Positions 2,113 through 39,342 of a stretch of 42,939 nt of DNA are shown piece by piece. How positions within the stretch are numbered: the first letter of the stretch is position 1; every line of letters starts with the position of its first letter. The DNA is from a virus (taxonomy: Duplodnaviria; Heunggongvirae; Uroviricota; Caudoviricetes), in the IMG/VR virus record IMGVR_UViG_2571042732_000002; one strand, given 5' to 3'. The notes beneath the pieces were generated by a model. That model searched no databases. It saw nothing but the letters and a program-made list of their open reading frames with translations, and had not been told where the DNA came from. Both the position numbers and the translations under genes were made by a program.

Positions 2113-2427
2113 TCACCGTTCCTTAAAGACGCCGTTTAACATGCCGATCGCCAGGCTTAAATGAGTCGGTGTGAATCCCATCAGCGTTACCGTTTCGCGG
2201 TGCTTCTTAAGTACGCTACGGCAAATGTCATCGACGTTTTTATCCGGAAACTGCTGTCTGGCTTTTTTGATTTCAGAATTAGCCTGACGGGCAATGCTGC
2301 GAAGGGCGTTTTCCTGCTGAGGTGTCATTGAACAAGTCCCATGTCGGCAAGCATAAGCACACAGAATATGAAGCCCTCTGCCAGAAAAATGCATTCCGTG
2401 GTTGTCATGCAGCCTCCCGACGGGCAA
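2113..2427 (-). CDS. Hypothetical protein, 104 aa, start uncertain
   Basis: ORF with TTG at 2427 preceded by AAGGA; internal ATGs at 2394 and 2328 are alternative starts. Confidence 0.35.
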   Translation of the reverse strand: MPVGRLHDNHGMHFSGRGLHILCAYACRHGTCSMTPQQENALRSIARQANSEIKKARQQFPDKNVDDICRSVLKKHRETVTLMGFTPTHLSLAIGMLNGVFKER

Positions 2428-2962
2428 GAATCCTTGAGCCGAACGCCATCAACTCTCCACGATCAACGGTCGTAAAGTGGCAGTGTGTACGGGGGTATGG
2501 GTGCCAGATAATGAGCATCGAGCCTTTATTATTTCCACTGACGGGTTTCTCAGTGAGTGGGTTAATAAATGCCAGTCGTCCTGCCGTGATGAATCTGACC
2601 TCACTGGCGGTTTGTATCGCTTCATGAAACCATCCGACAGATGTGTCAGCAGGCAATAACATTACACATCCCACACTACTGAATTTGTTTTCAGTGGCTG
2701 CCTTTTTCACAAAAGGGGAAATATTGCTGTATGGTGGATTCAACCAGACATAACCAGAGGCATATCCCATTGCTTCAGGCCATGAAGTGGTTAATGTGTT
2801 CTGCTCCTGTGAGATAAAAAGCCGACATAGTCGGTTTTTTTCGCTGGCGGCAGCATCAAGTTGAAAAACGAACTCTGCATTAAGCGCAGCAAAAATCTCT
2901 GGTGGTGTGCGCCAGCTGTCGCGATGTTCGGCAGGAGTATTGCTTCCGGTGAAATCAGTCAT
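2405..2962 (-). CDS. Phage Dam-type DNA N6-adenine methyltransferase, 185 aa
   Basis: NPPY catalytic motif (WLNPPYSNI) and overall resemblance to the small phage N6A methyltransferase family; ATG at 2962. Confidence 0.7.
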   Translation of the reverse strand: MTDFTGSNTPAEHRDSWRTPPEIFAALNAEFVFQLDAAASEKNRLCRLFISQEQNTLTTSWPEAMGYASGYVWLNPPYSNISPFVKKAATENKFSSVGCVMLLPADTSVGWFHEAIQTASEVRFITAGRLAFINPLTEKPVSGNNKGSMLIIWHPYPRTHCHFTTVDRGELMAFGSRILARREAA

Positions 2963-5640: not shown

Positions 5641-6153
5641 TCAGTGAGCGTGCTTTTCTTTTAATTTTAGTGCAACAATTTTTGTGATCACTCCGGAAAG
5701 CAGCATCGTGTAATTAGGGATTTTTGATGCTTTGTTCAAAACAGAGCCAATAACTAGAAATATAGCTAAAATAAATCCGAATAATGTCATGGATATCATT
5801 GAAATTATAGGGTTTTTTGCCATGTACATTTGCATTAAAACTGCGAAAAAGCGGTCAAATTCCTCAGAGTTCTCCTTGATAATATCCTCGGGTTTATTTT
5901 TGCTGGAGGCTAAATAAAACACGATAATGAATGGAGAAGCTATGAGCATCAATGGCAATGCGAACCACATCCGCATTAGCTTGTAATTTAGGTACATTTT
6001 ATTTTTTTCCTTGTCTGATAAATTTTCATCATTAAGGAATGTACTAAGCATCTCAACCGCTTTTGCTTGGTGTTTTAGGGCGTTTTTTCTACAGAAAATC
6101 CAATAAGAAAGCACGCAAGCACTGGCAACAGCGGCATATATCCACGTCATCAT
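5641..6153 (-). CDS. Polytopic membrane protein, 170 aa, about 3 TM helices, rexB slot
   Basis: ATG at 6153 overlapping the stop of the upstream gene (TAATG) with AGGAGG just upstream; three hydrophobic helices; AT-rich codon usage. Confidence 0.7.
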   Translation of the reverse strand: MMTWIYAAVASACVLSYWIFCRKNALKHQAKAVEMLSTFLNDENLSDKEKNKMYLNYKLMRMWFALPLMLIASPFIIVFYLASSKNKPEDIIKENSEEFDRFFAVLMQMYMAKNPIISMISMTLFGFILAIFLVIGSVLNKASKIPNYTMLLSGVITKIVALKLKEKHAH

Positions 6154-9057: not shown

Positions 9058-9755
9058 AAAACATCGCCGCACAGATGGTTAACTTTGACCGTGAGCAGAT
9101 GCGCCGGATCGCCAACAACATGCCGGAACAGTACGACGAAAAGCCGCAGGTACAGCAGGTAGCGCAGATCATCAATGGTGTGTTCAGCCAGTTACTGGCA
9201 ACTTTCCCGGCGAGCCTGGCTAATCGTGACCAGAACGAACTGAACGAAATCCGCCGCCAGTGGGTTCTGGCTTTCCGGGAAAACGGGATCACCACAATGG
9301 AACAGGTTAACGCAGGAATGCGCGTAGCCCGTCGGCAGAATCGACCATTCCTGCCATCACCCGGGCAGTTTGTCGCCTGGTGCCGGGAAGAAGCATCCGT
9401 TAACGCCGGGCTGCCAAACGTCAGCGAGCTGGTTGATATGGTCTATGAGTATTGTCGGAAGCGTGGCCTGTATCCAGATGCAGAGTCTTATCCGTGGAAA
9501 TCAAACGCGCACTACTGGCTGGTTACCAACCTGTTCCAGAACATGCGGGCCAATGCGCTTACTGATGCGGAATTACGGCGCAAGGCTGCCGATGAACTGT
9601 CCTGTATGACCGCGCGAATTAACCGTGGTGAGGCGATACCTGAACCAGTAAAACAGCTTCCTGTCATGGGCGGTAGACCTCTAAATCGTGCACAGGCTCT
9701 GGCGAAGATCGCAGAAATCAAAGCTAAGTTTGGGCTGAAAGGAGCAAGTGTATGA
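9054..9755 (+). CDS. P: Replication protein P (DnaB helicase loader), 233 aa
   Basis: Translated ORF recognisably near-identical to lambda P; ATGA overlap with O. Confidence 0.95.
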   Translation: MKNIAAQMVNFDREQMRRIANNMPEQYDEKPQVQQVAQIINGVFSQLLATFPASLANRDQNELNEIRRQWVLAFRENGITTMEQVNAGMRVARRQNRPFLPSPGQFVAWCREEASVNAGLPNVSELVDMVYEYCRKRGLYPDAESYPWKSNAHYWLVTNLFQNMRANALTDAELRRKAADELSCMTARINRGEAIPEPVKQLPVMGGRPLNRAQALAKIAEIKAKFGLKGASV

Positions 9756-10050
9756 CGGGCAAAGAGGCAATTATTTATTACCTGGGGACGCATAAGAGCT
9801 TCTGTGCGCAGGACGTTGCTGCGGCAACAGGTGTGATAGTAACCTGCATAAATCAGGCAGCGGCTAAAATGGCGCGTGCAGGAATCCTGGTCATTGATGG
9901 TAAGGTCTGGCGAACACGGTGTATTACCGGGTTGCTACCAGGGAAGAACGGGAAGGAAAGGTGAGCTCGAATCTGATTTTCAAGGAGTGTCGCCAGAGTG
10001 CCGCGATGAAGCGGGGGCTGGCGGTATATGGGAGATTAGTTATTACTTGA
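9752..10050 (+). pseudogene. ren: ren, disrupted by a frameshift
   Basis: N-terminal 55 aa match lambda Ren in frame 1 (MTGKEAIIYYLGTHKSFCAQDVAA...GKVWRT); the rest of Ren (VYYR.ATREEREGK.S.NL.FKECRQSAAMKR) continues in another frame after about 9917; frame 1 stops at 9964. Confidence 0.6.
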
Positions 10051-10330
10051 TTTGATGGTTATCTTGAAAACATCCAATCAAATTTAATGGTTTGCTTTGT
10101 GCGGGGAACTATAACAATGTTCCTGGCTTGGTGCTGTATGAATTAGTGAATTAGTAGGGAATATATCCACACATTGATTAACACAAAAATATTTCAGATA
10201 GAAAATGTAACTCAAAGGATGAGTAATAATGGTTGTGTAGCGTATGACAGGATACTGAGGTAGTATTAAACAATGAATAAATCTGAATGACAAGCACCAG
10301 ATAATACTGTGGGTTAATCATTAGACATGA

Positions 10331-10396
10331 ACGCCACTAGTTACTGAGAATAACTAATGGCGTTGTGTTTATAGTTAAGATGTTTTTTAAAACATC
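10331..10396. terminator. Two tandem hairpins downstream of the HD gene, near the island left edge
   Basis: 13-bp inverted repeat with one mismatch (ACGCCACTAGTTA ... TAACTAATGGCGT, 10331-10363) and perfect palindrome GATGTTTTTTAAAACATC (10379-10396). Confidence 0.3.
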
Positions 10397-10404
10397 AGGG
10401 GGCT

Positions 10405-11952
10405 CTACTTGTTTTTTTTAATATGTTCAATCTCATCATTAAGACTTTTATCTATTTTTTTTATTAACACATTGATTTCTTTGGTGTTTTGGAGTTGAGT
10501 TGTCTTAGAAACAAAAACTCGAATAAAGAATTTAACATAGTGATAGGGTTGAAGCACTTCATTGCACTCACGCAAATCATTTATTTTATATTTGCCGCCT
10601 GTTTCTTTTTTTATTATTTTGGCTTGACTTGTATCGATATCTTTAAAGTTATCTTCAATCTGAAAATCAAGAACCCATTCATTTCCTTTTAAATTATCTT
10701 TAATAATTCCATCGATTTTATCAGATATATCTTGTTTGGCTTCTTTGTATTTTTTGTCGGAAAGTTTAACATTAGAAAAAGTATATTTTTTTTCATATAC
10801 CTTTTTCCAAACATTTCTCTTAATAATATCTTGAATTATAGTTTTGGGACTTTCACCTAATTTATTATAAAGAGTATGCTCTAAAAATTTCTTGTCTGGG
10901 TTTGCAAGATAAAAGTCTTTGATGGACTCGATGAGTGTGTCTTTATCTTCTAAAGAGATAACATCAACAGGGTTTTCTCCAGAGCACGCTTTATTAAGCA
11001 TGGCAGATAACGCACGGTTGGTCTTATGGAAATAAACTTGACTATAAAGCCCACTTCTCGCATTTGCAAACTCTAGTATTGAGTCCATACCACTTTCTTT
11101 ATATGCTAGGTAAACACTATTTCCAACCTTCACAGGGATAAATGACATTAACAATCGCCCATAATCATAAATCCCATATTTAACGCCTGAGAAGTAGCTA
11201 TCTCTAAGTAAGTAATCCATTCTATCTGCATCTATAGGTGAAGATGATATGATTGAACCCAACAAAGGATATAGATTTACTTCATCAATATTATTTTCAT
11301 AATTGTATTTTTTTTCAACAATTTTTATAATGCTTTCTGGGTTAATTTCCTCTATATTTTTTTTATAGGCATCGTCGTTATTTGATTCACTGTTAGCTTC
11401 TTTTTTTAATTCTTCAATTATTTCTTTGATAAAAATACATGACATTTGTTCATGGGTTAATCTATTATTATTATTTAGTGATATGATTTCATCGTATTTT
11501 TTAATCCCATCAGCCTTGCATTTTTCTTTGAAAGCGTTTACGGATATTGAAAAACTATCGAATTGGTGGGCAAGGGGGCCATGCCCAACATCGTGTAACA
11601 ATGCTGCAATACGTAGCTCCTGTATAAGACTTGCTGGCATTTTTTTTATATCTAAATATAAATCAACGCCCATATTTTTTCGGTCATAAATTAATGCATT
11701 CAAATTTATATTTTTCAAAATCTCATACGATAAATGCATTACACCGACAGAGTGTTCAAAGCGAGAGTGCATTGCAGAAGGAAATACTTTATATAGAAAC
11801 GTATTCTGCCTGATATCTCTTAGTCGCTGGAATAAAGGATGGTCAATTATCTTTTTTTCTAGCTTAGTTATTCGAATCACTCCATGTATGGGATCTAAAA
11901 ACTTCCCCAGAAGTAAGTCTTCAAAGTTCTCAAGTTTGTTTTTGTTTGTCAT
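10405..11952 (-). CDS. HD-domain protein, dGTPase/SAMHD1-like dNTP triphosphohydrolase family, 515 aa
   Basis: HD motifs in canonical order: RFEHSVGV, LLHDVGHGPLAH, DADRMDYLLRD; ATG 11952 with AGGAAA upstream; C-terminal third Lys-rich and low complexity. Confidence 0.75.
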   Translation of the reverse strand: MTNKNKLENFEDLLLGKFLDPIHGVIRITKLEKKIIDHPLFQRLRDIRQNTFLYKVFPSAMHSRFEHSVGVMHLSYEILKNINLNALIYDRKNMGVDLYLDIKKMPASLIQELRIAALLHDVGHGPLAHQFDSFSISVNAFKEKCKADGIKKYDEIISLNNNNRLTHEQMSCIFIKEIIEELKKEANSESNNDDAYKKNIEEINPESIIKIVEKKYNYENNIDEVNLYPLLGSIISSSPIDADRMDYLLRDSYFSGVKYGIYDYGRLLMSFIPVKVGNSVYLAYKESGMDSILEFANARSGLYSQVYFHKTNRALSAMLNKACSGENPVDVISLEDKDTLIESIKDFYLANPDKKFLEHTLYNKLGESPKTIIQDIIKRNVWKKVYEKKYTFSNVKLSDKKYKEAKQDISDKIDGIIKDNLKGNEWVLDFQIEDNFKDIDTSQAKIIKKETGGKYKINDLRECNEVLQPYHYVKFFIRVFVSKTTQLQNTKEINVLIKKIDKSLNDEIEHIKKNK

Positions 11953-12311
11953 GAGGCTTTCCTTTTGCTGTAGTTATAATACGAAATTTAAATAGTAATG
12001 ATGTTTATAGTTTCAATGTGTTATCTAATGGTTAACACATTGTGATGTAGCATATCAATATGGATTCATATGTTCAATTGGTCTGTGGAGTTTAGTTATG
12101 AATAAGATTGATTCTGGTAATACTTTGTAGTTTAAGCTAGAGGCGGGATTCGTGATGTTCAAATCAGTATGTAATGGAGGTTGTGCATTAGTACTTGCTG
12201 CTGGAAATTAAAAATAAAGTTGCAAGTAATCGACGTTTTCCGAGAGGAGGATGTAAGCATCGCTGACCAAAAAGTATCAACGATGCCTGTTTTGTTTTAA
12301 CTACAAATTAA

Positions 12312-13814
12312 TTAAATTGCATCTGCAAACTCTGGGACTTTTCGCTCAAGTATAATTGATGAGTTGCTGTTGTCGCTTTTTTTATTTTCATGATTACGAA
12401 TGGCCAATGACTCATTAAAGTCTTTTGCGACTGCTGTCTCAATAAATTCAATTTCTGAATCAGAGTGTTTTTTAACAGCTTCTTTGATCTCATCCAGAGT
12501 AACATAGAAAAACTCTTTTCTACGATTTACAAGATTGACTCTCTTTTTATCGAAGACATCATGTAGTTTTTTTTCTAATGATGGAGCGTCCTCCGAATAA
12601 ATCATGGCATGCACATCAAAAATAAAAGGAACAGATGCATCACCAAGCTCATTTACACGGTCTTGTGGATCAAGACGTCGTGTCATGCCTATTTTATAAA
12701 CATTCTCCCCAAAAGAACCTATGTTCGAAATAATATAAACATGACCTTGTTTGGTTTGTTGTGCCATGGATAATGCTCTTTGATGCTTTGATTCAGCCTG
12801 CGACAAACTCTGTTCTAGTTCGGCAATGCGATTTTCGAGGCGCTGCTTCATGTCACCAGTAACTTTTTCCATTTCCTTTCTTGCAGCTTCAATTGCTTTT
12901 TTATAACGGCGCTCTTCTGCCTCTGCGTCTTGCATTGCCTTTTCTATTTCTCGTTGTGCACGCTCCTCCTCTCTCATTTGTGCCCTTATTTCTGCCTGTT
13001 CTTCTTTTTCTTTCTGTTTTTGCTCACGATATTCATGGGTAAGCCACAACTCCTCAAGTTTTTTATTAAGGTATTTAGTATTTATATATATGTGATTTTG
13101 CTCGTTTAGTTTATTTATGGCCTCAAATGCCTTTGTGATGCGTTCTTCCATTTTAGTGATATTTTTCCACGTGCAATTACTAATTGCAGCATCACATTCA
13201 TTATTAAATGCTCTAGTAGTTAGCCTAATATTTCTGTCTGTCATTTTTTTACCCTCTGCTCGAGAGCCTTCAACAGTCCATTGGGTTGTACAATATACTG
13301 CACCAGAGTGGGTTTTATCCCGCAGCATTAATTTCTGTTCATCCCTGATGGATTTTATTTTGTTTTTAAATTGCTCTGAATCTTCAAAATTAAAATGAGG
13401 TTCGTAAAATCCTAGTTCGGTTAGTTCAACATCTTCTGAATAAATAGAAATTTGCTTTACTAGTTTATCATATATTTCTTTCTTCTCTTTATAAGTTCTT
13501 CTTAGTTCTTGGATTTGTTTATTGATACCATCCATTTTTTCAATGGTGTTTGTTAGTTCATTATTGGCATTTTCTTTTACTTTTTGGGACTCTTCTTTTA
13601 TAATGGAGCATTCTTGCTCTGTTTTTTCAATAAGCTTCTTACATTCCTCTTCCACATTAAAATAATCTGCAAAGCGAGATTTGTATTCTTCATTTTTTTG
13701 ATTGCTATCACTTAATTCTAATTGTATTTTTTTGATGCGTTTGATTGCAGCTATATATAGAACAAGAACAACCAATAAAAATATGATTGCAAGTAATAGT
13801 GGAGTTTGAGTCAT
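12312..13814 (-). CDS. Membrane-anchored coiled-coil protein with C-terminal T5orf172 (GIY-YIG-like) domain, DUF4041-like architecture, 500 aa
   Basis: N-terminal TM helix (LLLAIIFLLVVLVLYIAAI); long E/K/R/Q-rich heptad region; C-terminal GHVYIISNIGSFGENVYKIGMTRRLDPQDRVNELGD...RVNLVNRRKEFFYV matches the recalled T5orf172 consensus; ATG 13814 with AAGGAA upstream. Confidence 0.75.
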   Translation of the reverse strand: MTQTPLLLAIIFLLVVLVLYIAAIKRIKKIQLELSDSNQKNEEYKSRFADYFNVEEECKKLIEKTEQECSIIKEESQKVKENANNELTNTIEKMDGINKQIQELRRTYKEKKEIYDKLVKQISIYSEDVELTELGFYEPHFNFEDSEQFKNKIKSIRDEQKLMLRDKTHSGAVYCTTQWTVEGSRAEGKKMTDRNIRLTTRAFNNECDAAISNCTWKNITKMEERITKAFEAINKLNEQNHIYINTKYLNKKLEELWLTHEYREQKQKEKEEQAEIRAQMREEERAQREIEKAMQDAEAEERRYKKAIEAARKEMEKVTGDMKQRLENRIAELEQSLSQAESKHQRALSMAQQTKQGHVYIISNIGSFGENVYKIGMTRRLDPQDRVNELGDASVPFIFDVHAMIYSEDAPSLEKKLHDVFDKKRVNLVNRRKEFFYVTLDEIKEAVKKHSDSEIEFIETAVAKDFNESLAIRNHENKKSDNSNSSIILERKVPEFADAI

Positions 13815-14240
13815 TCGTGCTATTCCTTACGGACAATTTAAGACGTTTTGTATTAAATCCTGTTCAATGTGTATGCGGGTGATTGCTACCGCTTACAATC
13901 TTCATAATTATCAGTTAGATAGACTCGCTAGTAAATAATTTCATTTTTTGCAATATTCTTATTGAATATTTCAATTTATGAAATGAACTTTTTATCCTTT
14001 CAAGGCGAAAGGTTTCTTCTTCGGAAATATTTGCTCTCGTGTGACGTATAAAGGCCTTTGATTTTTAAAAATCAGTAGGGAATAATATAGTTACTGTCGG
14101 CCTGAACACCCGGCGGTGGGGTTGCGCCAAACGGGGACGTTTATGCGCACATACAATCTAAACTCTCTTCTCCCTTCACAGATGCAGAAATGCACCTGCG
14201 ATTTTTTGCATCCAACGTTTGACCTCTGCGGAGGTGAAGC

Positions 14241-14696
14241 GTGAACCTCCCACAAGACGGCATCAAATTACATCGCGGTAACTTCACCGCTATCGGTCAG
14301 CAGATCCAGCCTTATCTGGAGGACGGAAAATGTTTTCGCATGGTGCTTAAACCGTGGCGTGAGAAACGCAGTCTTTCCCAGAATGCACTCAGCCACATGT
14401 GGTACAGCGAAATCAGTGAATACCTCATCAGCAGGGGGAAATCGTTCGCTACCGCAGCATGGGTAAAAGATGTTCTCAAACACACATACCTCGGTTATGA
14501 AACCAAGGATCTGGTTGATGTCGTAACAGGCGAAATCACTACTATCCAGTCGTTACGCCATACCTCCGATCTTGATACCGGAGAGATGTATGTCTTCCTG
14601 TGTAAGGTTGAAGCCTGGGCGATGAATATTGGCTGCCACCTGACTATTCCGCAGAGCTGCGAGTTCCAGCTGCTGCGCGACAAGCAGGAGGCGTAA
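14241..14696 (+). CDS. ninB: NinB/YbcN-family recombination protein, 151 aa
   Basis: GTG start with GGAGG upstream; [12 protein letters not shown] motif comparable to lambda NinB RSLDQNRKLW; same length and position as DLP12 YbcN. Confidence 0.65.
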
Positions 14697-14866
14697 TGGC
14701 TACACCGCTTATTCGTGTCATGAGCGGACACATCTACAGAGTACCAAATCGTCGTAAGCGTAAGCCTGAGCTGAAACCATCCGAAATACCAACACTGCTC
14801 GGATATACCGCCAGCCTGGTTGATAAAAAATGGTTGCGACTGGCAGCAAGGAGGAACCATGGCTGA
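14696..14866 (+). CDS. Small nin-region ORF, 56 aa, NinE-like by position and size
   Basis: ATG overlaps ninB stop (TAATG) with AGGAGG upstream; ends overlapping the next gene start; not in the track because under 60 aa. Confidence 0.35.
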   Translation: MATPLIRVMSGHIYRVPNRRKRKPELKPSEIPTLLGYTASLVDKKWLRLAARRNHG

Positions 14867-17910: not shown

Positions 17911-18204
17911 TTATTGTGAGCAATACACACGCGCTTCCAGCGGAGTATAAATGCCTAAAGTAATAAAACCGAGCAATCCATTTACGAATGTTTGCTGGGT
18001 TTCTGTTTTAACAACATTTTCTGCACCACCACAAATTTTTGCTGCATCGACAGTTTTCTTCTGCCCAATTCCCGAAACGAAGAAATGATGGGTGATGGTT
18101 TCCTTTGGTGTTACTGCTGTAGGTTTGTTTCCAACAGTAAACGTCTGTTGAGCACATCCTGTAATAAGCATTGCCAGAGCGGCAGAAAACAACATTTTTT
18201 TCAT
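17911..18204 (-). CDS. bor: Bor lipoprotein (serum resistance), 97 aa
   Basis: From ATG 18204 the product MKKMLFSAALAMLITGCAQQTFTV... is recognisably near-identical to lambda Bor; the track's longer ORF has a spurious N-terminal extension. Confidence 0.9.
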   Translation of the reverse strand: MKKMLFSAALAMLITGCAQQTFTVGNKPTAVTPKETITHHFFVSGIGQKKTVDAAKICGGAENVVKTETQQTFVNGLLGFITLGIYTPLEARVYCSQ

Positions 18205-38742: not shown

Positions 38743-39342
38743 ATGCGTAAACTTTATGCCGCCATTTTGTCCGCAGCCATTTGTCTGGCCGTATCCGGTG
38801 CGCCTGCATGGGCGTCTGAACATCAGTCCACGCTGAGCGCGGGGTATCTTCATGTCTCGACGAACGTTCCCGGCAGCGATGATCTGAACGGGATTAACGT
38901 GAAATACCGTTATGAGTTTACGGACACACTGGGGATGGTGACGTCTTTCAGCTATGCAGGAGACAAGAATCGCCAGCTTACCCGTTACAGCGATACCCGC
39001 TGGCATGAAGATTCCGTTCGTAACCGCTGGTTCAGCGTAATGGCGGGGCCGTCTGTGCGCGTGAATGAATGGTTCAGCGCGTATGCGATGGCGGGTGTGG
39101 CTTACAGCCGTGTGTCGACTTTCTCCGGGGATTATCTCCGCGTAACTGACAACAAGGGGAAAACGCACGACGTGCTGACCGGAAGTGATGACGGTCGCCA
39201 CAGCAACACGTCTCTGGCGTGGGGAGCTGGCGTGCAGTTTAACCCGACCGAATCCGTGGCCATTGATATTGCTTATGAAGGCTCCGGCAGTGGCGACTGG
39301 CGCACTGACGGTTTCATCGTGGGTGTCGGTTATAAATTCTGA
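38743..39342 (+). CDS. lom: Lom outer-membrane beta-barrel protein (Ail/Lom family), 199 aa
   Basis: Signal peptide; C-terminal ...[25 protein letters not shown] matches lambda Lom; the N-terminal two-thirds are a divergent allele. Confidence 0.9.

Follow-up and report, generated by a model that had tools for sequence, protein, structure and literature searches.

The stretch of DNA analysed here, referred to as the window, is a whole lambda-like prophage of Escherichia coli of 42,939 nt (IMG/VR record IMGVR_UViG_2571042732_000002), running from the integrase through the tail fibres, and all positions are given in window coordinates. It is an intact lambdoid prophage, 100% identical to the one present in E. 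coli MP1, SCU-111, FDAARGOS_1373 and LI60C3. We studied an island at its ren-ninB junction (10064-14122), which holds two minus-strand open reading frames (ORFs), at 10405-11952 (further called the HD gene) and at 12312-13814 (the SNIPE gene). An initial annotation, made from the sequence alone, had proposed an AT-rich island of about 4 kb at this site, with lambda-like sequence ending after a frameshifted ren and restarting at ninB and with two genes antisense to the pR transcript, and all of this was borne out down to the exact ORF coordinates. The guanine-cytosine (GC) fraction of the island is 0.330 compared to 0.529 across the remaining window; a windowed profile falls from approximately 0.52-0.55 to 0.29-0.35 over approximately 10000-14100, and the island is the lowest-GC 4-kb stretch of the whole 42.9-kb prophage. 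Homology to other lambdoid phages stops at 10063 and restarts at 14123. The last lambda-like gene before the island is a ren pseudogene (9752-10050, plus strand) consisting of two overlapping ORFs (9752-9964 and 9919-10050) and named 'protein ren, frameshifted' in RefSeq. The genes around the island, namely O, P, ren, ninB/ybcN, ninE, rusA and Q, lie on the plus strand. RefSeq genes of E. coli MP1 coincide with both antisense ORFs, encoding respectively WP_032286720.1 ('HD domain-containing protein') and WP_032286722.1 ('DUF4041 domain-containing protein'), and the distance between them, estimated before at about 360 bp, measures 359 bp. An Rfam scan of 9700-14700 gave no known RNA family at E<=1, and a search for literature that names the ren-ninB junction as a defence hotspot returned nothing specific.

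Judged by its sequence, the gene at 12312-13814 (minus strand) is SNIPE, also known as PD-lambda-1, a system that has already been characterised experimentally. This assignment is made because its product matches the PADLOC PD-Lambda-1 model PDLC03976 over its full length (E=1.2e-198, residues 1-485 on model positions 1-485 of 491), has the expected domains and the published length of 500 aa, keeps all nine residues cited in the SNIPE paper (the catalytic E414 as well as N250, W257, E223, L253, E264, K305, T319 and I308), and has a 97.5% identical copy, annotated 'PD-lambda-1', at the same site in phage PhiR26_1. The protein consists of an N-terminal transmembrane anchor (residues 6-24, LLLAIIFLLVVLVLYIAAI, mean Kyte-Doolittle hydropathy 3.37), a coiled coil, a DUF4041 domain (198-252, Pfam 1e-19) and a GIY-YIG/T5orf172 nuclease domain (357-449; T5orf172 7e-17, MUG113 7e-19). 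The defence candidate with a transmembrane segment, coiled coil and T5orf172 domain that the initial annotation had singled out is thus a known system, and newer RefSeq records name the gene 'SNIPE associated domain-containing protein'. A functional screen of E. coli fosmids yielded PD-lambda-1, described as a protein anchored in the membrane that combines DUF4041 with a DNA-cleavage domain at its C-terminus (Vassallo et al. 2022, PMC9519451), and it was later renamed SNIPE (Saxton et al. 2025, bioRxiv 10.1101/2025.11.03.685801). According to the latter work, SNIPE is a nuclease with a transmembrane segment near its N-terminus that is expressed constitutively from its native promoter, is constitutively localised to the membrane, interacts with both ManYZ and the tape measure protein of the phage, and cleaves phage DNA as it is being injected; it protects against lambda and other siphoviruses and spares the induced prophage. 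Cloned singly, it gives full defence (bioRxiv 10.1101/2025.11.03.685801; PMC9519451). In length, in its architecture of transmembrane segment, DUF4041 and GIY-YIG domain, in the cited residues, in its full-length hidden Markov model match and in its location in a lambdoid prophage, the window gene resembles published SNIPE without substantive difference, the local peculiarity being the HD gene, which a minority of E. coli prophages have as an insertion downstream of it. Among E. coli records, the SNIPE gene is broken by IS1 in three and by IS5 in one (NZ_AP038814, NZ_CP101915, NZ_CP137705 and NZ_CM144251) and carries a 1-bp frameshift in three further ones, some of these frameshifts possibly being assembly errors; that the gene has been inactivated more than once could point to a fitness cost.

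The HD gene (10405-11952, minus strand) encodes a 515-aa, presumably cytosolic protein, in which a hydropathy scan found no hydrophobic segment. Pfam identified an HD domain (1e-6) and a weak, sub-threshold HD_assoc_2 match, and phmmer against the PDB retrieved the Aquifex protein 2hek (7e-29), E. faecalis EF1143 (2o6i, 5e-28) and human SAMHD1 (3e-25, query residues 19-430 on SAMHD1 119-502). An AlphaFold2 model based on 45 homologues reached a predicted local distance difference test (pLDDT) score of 88.3 and a predicted template modelling (pTM) score of 0.90. When this model was compared with the PDB by Foldseek, the best 50 matches were all SAMHD1 structures (human, and fungal 9mr6; E ~4e-19, TM scores 0.59-0.68), the best-scoring ones being SAMHD1 tetramers. 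The earlier suggestion of an HD-domain protein resembling deoxynucleoside triphosphate (dNTP) triphosphohydrolases (dNTPases) can thus be sharpened to a SAMHD1-type protein. The protein belongs to phrog_35128 (3.5e-138), a family annotated as function unknown.

In SAMHD1, the H..HD..D metal site is formed by H167, H206, D207 and D311 and the catalytic histidines are H210, H215 and H233, and established structures define a first allosteric site with D137, Q142 and R145 and a second one with D330, R333, R352, K354, N358, H376 and K377. In the alignment, SAMHD1 R164, H167, H206, D207, H210 and H215 correspond to R64, H67, H120, D121, H124 and H129 of the HD protein, and D311, Y315, D319 and R366 to D243, Y247, D251 and R299. 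H67, H120, D121, D243, H124 and H129 are invariant across the 45 homologues, and R64, R299, Y247 and D251 are invariant or nearly so, as are D37, Q42 and R45, which align with the D137/Q142/R145 triad of the first allosteric site. The second allosteric site is kept in part: D263, R266, H309 and K310 match D330, R333, H376 and K377, and R352, K354 and N358 are replaced by K285, S287 and S291. Moreover, the HD protein has an invariant H167-E168 pair within a 'THEQ' motif and SAMHD1 contains 'wTHEQgs'; HMMER left both motifs unaligned, and H167 would be the counterpart of SAMHD1 H233. Compared to human SAMHD1, EF1143 and 2HEK, the HD protein thus shares sequence homology, fold, the H..HD..D metal site, catalytic histidines, the substrate-binding arginine and the triad of the first allosteric site. 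It differs in lacking the SAM domain of human SAMHD1, in having a longer helical insert (approximately residues 134-228) and a distinct C-terminal beta/helix region (431-515) and, unlike human SAMHD1 and the EF1143-type enzymes, in being borne by prophages and defence islands. By homology, predicted fold and active-site conservation it is a SAMHD1/EF1143-type protein with putative dNTPase activity.

These residues also bear on a different role, in which the HD protein would act as a counter-defence or signal-degrading enzyme that, for instance, hydrolyses immune signalling nucleotides. The HD superfamily includes cyclic-nucleotide and (p)ppGpp hydrolases, and the gene is phage-borne and sometimes found near CBASS, which would fit such an activity. 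We nevertheless hold this role to be highly improbable, as the SAMHD1 dNTPase catalytic set is conserved together with the residues of the first allosteric site, dNTP triphosphohydrolases account for all of the best matches in sequence and in fold, the gene runs antisense to lytic transcription, and its relatives share chromosomal defence islands with many unrelated systems.

Among validated nucleotide-depletion systems, the defensive dGTPases of Tal et al. (2022) share the proposed logic, in which an HD-superfamily enzyme strips the triphosphate from dNTPs and starves phage replication, and they likewise occur as single genes in defence islands. They form another clade: these dGTPases could not be aligned directly to SAMHD1 (Tal et al. 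2022), whereas the HD protein aligns with it directly at 3e-25. Membership of the Tal-type dGTPases was rejected, as the PADLOC model PDLC02374 gave no more than 15 bits (E=0.003), confined to residues 59-130 with the HD motif. The NCBIfam model dGTP_triPase (TIGR01353) was likewise rejected at 15.9 bits against a cut-off of 152, as was Dgt-type membership in a BLASTP comparison with a true PADLOC dGTPase (L107:6397-7719, 2.9e-135), which gave 25 bits over 99 aa. That dGTPase comes from Vibrio caribbeanicus ATCC BAA-2122 (L107, 6397-9491), where a SAMHD1-type HD homologue with the same orientation follows it directly, so that two different dNTPase clades stand in tandem.

In Clover, the Dgt-type, octameric CloA is partnered with CloB, a nucleotidyltransferase (NTase) that makes the inhibitor p3diT, and raised dNTP levels serve as the infection cue (PMC12265719). 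We rejected Clover for this locus since CloA is Dgt-type and needs the CloB NTase, and the island holds the HD and SNIPE genes only, with no NTase domain; as a dNTPase effector set by nucleotide allostery, it does offer a plausible model for infection sensing by the HD protein. Ogmios, a cassette of the V. cholerae superintegron, encodes an HD-domain putative dGTPase that protects against phages and escapes the standard dGTPase model; it has been described as overlapping in BLAST with dGTPases of DefenseFinder and as being predicted to form a hexamer (Darracq et al. 2024/2025). Compared by description rather than by sequence, it resembles the HD protein as a single-gene HD-domain cassette missed by that model and, unlike the HD protein, leans towards the Dgt type. 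A 43%-identical homologue of the HD protein is present in a V. cholerae cassette array (L012), and Ogmios is the single validated system to which the HD protein might belong; the HD gene may be a member of Ogmios instead of an uncatalogued clade.

The comparison of related lambdoid prophages proposed in the initial annotation revealed the same cargo at the ren-ninB site in seven IMG/VR loci, and SNIPE without the HD gene in PhiR26_1. By BLAST, the window aligned with PhiR26_1 over 9700-10063 (P/ren, with 10063 as the last matching position) and 12250-14211 (the SNIPE module) with nothing between, and this gap therefore delimits an HD module at 10064-12249 (minus strand, GC 0.317) that is missing from SNIPE-only prophages such as PhiR26_1. 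Distribution was counted in 5,426 complete E. coli genomes, 131 of which carry SNIPE and 21 the HD gene; SNIPE occurs without the HD gene in 110 of the 131, and the 21 HD-bearing genomes are the same 21 that have the whole island. Homologues of the HD protein with 62-78% identity are found in Enterobacter, Proteus, Serratia, Yersinia and IMG/VR prophages with no SNIPE nearby. The view of the initial annotation that these are two independent single-gene modules is supported because of the border at 12249/12250, the separate 3' hairpin of each gene, the SNIPE-only prophages and the HD homologues that lack a SNIPE neighbour.

Alternatively, both genes could form one cooperating system in E. coli, with, for example, the dNTPase backing up or regulating the nuclease. 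They have the same orientation, SNIPE is the direct upstream neighbour of every E. coli copy of the HD gene (21 of 21 complete genomes and the seven IMG/VR prophages), and both survive in three E. coli genomes with a decayed prophage in which a truncated bet is fused to the HD module. Nevertheless, SNIPE cloned alone gives full defence, most SNIPE-bearing genomes and the SNIPE-less HD homologues show each gene without the other, and the 359-bp gap contains a stem-loop and the recombination border. Moreover, SNIPE is interrupted by IS1 or a 1-bp frameshift in 6 of the 21 loci with the HD gene annotated as intact, the frameshifts possibly being sequencing errors. A cooperating HD-SNIPE system is therefore largely refuted and retains little probability in our view, and the exclusive linkage in E. 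coli is best read as a single ancestral insertion of the HD module downstream of SNIPE.

One of the decayed prophages, in E. coli 2 HS-C (L019, 3807-5930), lies at tRNA-Arg beside fimZ (intD integrase) and has lost its immunity/replication region; here the truncated bet abuts the HD module, and the HD gene, SNIPE and nin genes remain. At the other end of the island, lambda-like matches restart with a conserved linker before ninB/ybcN (14123-14240, plus strand), which contains a 33-aa ORF (14143-14244, WP_072129709.1). An 89-bp part of it (14123-14211) is present twice in PhiR26_1 (L002, 5415-5503 and 7349-7437), where it brackets extra Rha-containing cargo, and this doubled linker looks like a recombination 'joint' permitting cargo modules to be swapped at the ren-ninB site.

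Sequence variation within the HD gene was compared between its two E. coli alleles, which share 89-90% nucleotide identity and are flanked by SNIPE genes that are at least 99.3% identical. The divergence is patchy (78-83% nucleotide identity) and confined to codons ~121-480, where the synonymous rate (dS) is 0.25-0.65, compared to approximately 0-0.13 for the codons preceding 120 and 0.02 for SNIPE. Such a pattern indicates that intragenic recombination replaced part of the allele, its breakpoint lying near codon 120. Codons 241-320 have a ratio of nonsynonymous to synonymous rates (dN/dS) of 0-0.02 at a dS of 0.5-0.65, so that the catalytic core is under strong purifying constraint, and codons 121-240 and 321-440 are more permissive (dN/dS 0.26-0.74). 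Positive selection was rejected in favour of a recombination mosaic, as no block of codons had a dN/dS above 1 (maximum 0.74).

Hairpins had been noted near 10331-10396 in the initial annotation, and they are real. A strong, imperfect hairpin lies 3' of the HD gene at 10325-10368 and a second, AT-rich 7-bp hairpin at 10379-10396, between the HD stop codon and the main hairpin. The 86-nt hairpin stretch folds at -23 kcal/mol on the plus strand (z = -3.0) and at -26 kcal/mol on the minus strand (z = -6.2). Both hairpins are kept in all E. coli loci that have the HD gene and SNIPE; in one locus an A>G change perfects the main stem, and in the second hairpin the length of the loop and T-run varies. 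A terminator scan did not flag them. Located directly 3' of the HD stop codon, they are most simply explained as the gene's own terminator, the main hairpin being a probable and possibly bidirectional one, and they may also halt pR read-through that is not antiterminated. SNIPE has a 13-bp stem-loop of its own 3' of its stop codon (12255-12288, minus strand; minus-strand fold of 12230-12320 -22.7 kcal/mol, z = -3.4), which falls within the segment shared with PhiR26_1 (beginning at 12250) and travels with the SNIPE module.

The region 11953-12249 (minus strand), upstream of the HD gene, presumably contains that gene's own promoter and a ribosome-binding site (GGAAAG, 7-8 nt before the ATG), and the two HD alleles show 100% identity over it. 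Within this shared sequence, an 8-bp inverted repeat, ATGTGTTA(N9)TAACACAT at 12016-12040 (minus strand), precedes the start codon by approximately 65-90 nt, and it could, speculatively, be an operator. The region upstream of SNIPE (13815-14122, minus strand; 97.5% identical in PhiR26_1) has a promoter-like site at 13935-13907 (TTTACT-17-GATAAT), identified by consensus match only.

The HD family was met repeatedly next to known defence systems in unrelated genomes and as prophage cargo. Besides the ren-ninB junction of E. coli lambdoid prophages (the window and the seven IMG/VR loci), its members occupy the gpV-gpS interval of P2-like prophages as antisense morons (L015, L030, L031) and after O/P, methylase and DUF968 genes in another lambdoid type (L032, L041). 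In the latter two loci a complete Kiwa system adjoins the HD homologue (KwaA 3e-82, KwaB 5e-121), and in L029 PD-T4-3 (6e-121) lies directly upstream of it. In Proteus (L006), a CBASS cyclase (3e-142), a 2TM effector (1e-88) and PDC-M45A are all within 6 kb, in Enterobacter HigBA is near, and the V. cholerae homologue sits in a cassette array rich in toxin-antitoxin genes. Klebsiella 'prophage' records with 43-44% identical homologues were rejected as examples of phage cargo, since the gene is placed at the very edge of a record or outside it, or else 5.5 kb away from the tail genes, and probably belongs to the flanking chromosome.

As a less selective control, we considered one upstream and one downstream ORF at the HD loci of 10 species-representative genomes. 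A strong defence neighbour was present at four of them: ZorA (6e-168), DarG (1.5e-101), a Dgt-type dGTPase (2.9e-135) and an Argonaute-associated (Aga) restriction endonuclease (8e-42). In the study of Tal et al. (2022), a frequency of 53% next to defence genes was taken as evidence of a defence role, compared to 10% for distant, probably non-defensive homologues. With strict search patterns, 23 HD loci were found among 100,044 species representatives, indicating a patchy distribution, and the same strict-pattern scan found no family member in the E. coli and V. cholerae representatives (the V. cholerae strain is not identified). Among IMG/VR loci L042-L100 (e.g. L046, L050, L056 and L063), many SAMHD1-like HD genes with 27-35% identity are carried on GVMAG-labelled contigs, and SAMHD1-family genes thus appear to be borne also by large eukaryotic viruses.

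With SNIPE characterised and the relatives of the HD gene linked to defence systems and to prophage cargo sites, the initial proposal that the island is an anti-phage defence locus is supported, and the HD gene is a strong candidate for nucleotide-depletion defence. We consider it probable that the island is a defence cargo of two independent modules, SNIPE and a SAMHD1-type dNTPase of predicted activity, which have their own promoters and would act first at the entry and then at the replication stage of infection. Because of their antisense orientation to the pR early-lytic transcript and their own presumed promoters, both modules would be suited to expression in the lysogen. SNIPE, as a constitutive GIY-YIG nuclease of the inner membrane at the ManYZ/tape-measure injection site, would cut incoming siphovirus DNA. 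The HD protein most likely hydrolyses dNTPs to deoxynucleosides and triphosphate and would thereby starve phage replication. Conservation of the residues of the first allosteric site of SAMHD1 makes it probable that nucleotides activate the protein allosterically. Both proteins together would thus provide layered protection. Once the prophage is induced, N-antiterminated transcription from pR would cross the island in antisense and would presumably lower the expression of both genes.

Several points weigh against this account. PADLOC 2.0 (v2.0.0, 2023, whose models do not include Ogmios) has no model recognising the HD protein, its dGTPase model giving E=0.003, and among the 7.7 million papers and 0.34 million preprints searched no SAMHD1/EF1143-type bacterial homologue was validated as phage defence, a 2026 review regarding such SAMHD1-type bacterial defence proteins as possibly 'unidentified'. 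A sigma-70 scan gave 21 sites compared to 18.8 expected, so that no promoter could be assigned above chance, and silencing via antisense transcription is purely conjectural. The independence of the modules has to be reconciled with the observation that in E. coli the HD gene never occurs without SNIPE. At the remaining six of the 10 representative loci, the neighbour was a reverse-transcriptase fragment in one case and no defence gene was found in five. Finally, the homologue of K. pneumoniae is very common, with 3530 members in its cluster, and lies in ordinary chromosome between a short-chain dehydrogenase/reductase (SDR) gene and a type VI secretion system (T6SS) cluster, and the Serratia homologue follows proA in a plain chromosomal context; part of the HD family may thus be housekeeping.

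These chromosomal homologues bring in the main alternative, in which the HD protein regulates the dNTP pool on behalf of the host or prophage, acting in replication fidelity, the cell cycle or lysogen physiology, and is hitch-hiking beside SNIPE. The conserved context of the K. pneumoniae homologue lacks defence neighbours, as do Serratia and several of the representative loci; the EF1143-like bacterial SAMHD1-type enzymes have a known biochemistry with no defence role demonstrated in the searched literature, and a Caulobacter Dgt is reported, in the title of a paper, to promote cell-cycle progression. A pool regulator would, however, poorly explain a defence protein as the immediate neighbour at four to five of 10 unselected loci, next to the association with SNIPE, Kiwa, PD-T4-3 and CBASS. 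Neither would it readily account for an antisense moron in two unrelated types of temperate phage, for the patchy distribution, with representatives of E. coli K-12 and V. cholerae lacking the HD gene, or for an HD gene that is kept intact in a decayed prophage. We therefore regard this alternative as unlikely, though it deserves more weight than the other rivals, and prefer the two-module defence cargo.

Apart from the island, the prophage carries other genes that could serve the lysogen. Between the cI-like repressor and the kil/gam region, a second AT-rich patch (GC 0.38-0.42) contains a gene at 5641-6153 (minus strand) for the 170-aa hypothetical protein WP_032286713.1, at the position that rexAB occupies in lambda. 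The sole match of this protein was phrog_19124 (function unknown, 4e-10), with no PADLOC match, and it is possibly a further moron expressed in the lysogen. Other lysogen cargo comprises a phage N6-adenine methyltransferase (2405-2962, minus strand), the bor-like serum-resistance lipoprotein gene iss (17911-18204, minus strand) and an Ail/Lom outer-membrane protein (38743-39342, plus strand).

The SNIPE half of the island is already explained, and the island adds one more natural context in which SNIPE occurs. Bacterial immunity by nucleotide depletion has been demonstrated for Dgt-type dGTPases, whose resemblance to human SAMHD1 is at the level of the fold, whereas the HD protein aligns with SAMHD1 directly. 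More tentatively, and with somewhat less than even confidence, we propose that the SAMHD1-family dNTPases of phrog_35128 and relatives could be a widespread, uncatalogued family of single-gene defences, carried as cargo by lambdoid and P2-like phages and by defence islands and switched on by raised dNTP levels via SAMHD1-like allosteric sites. If the HD protein does protect, this would establish a tighter evolutionary link between bacterial and human antiviral dNTPases, with continuity to SAMHD1 at the sequence level, and would offer a tractable E. coli model of SAMHD1-style allosteric control during infection, in a prophage that stacks a nuclease acting at phage entry with an enzyme that starves replication.

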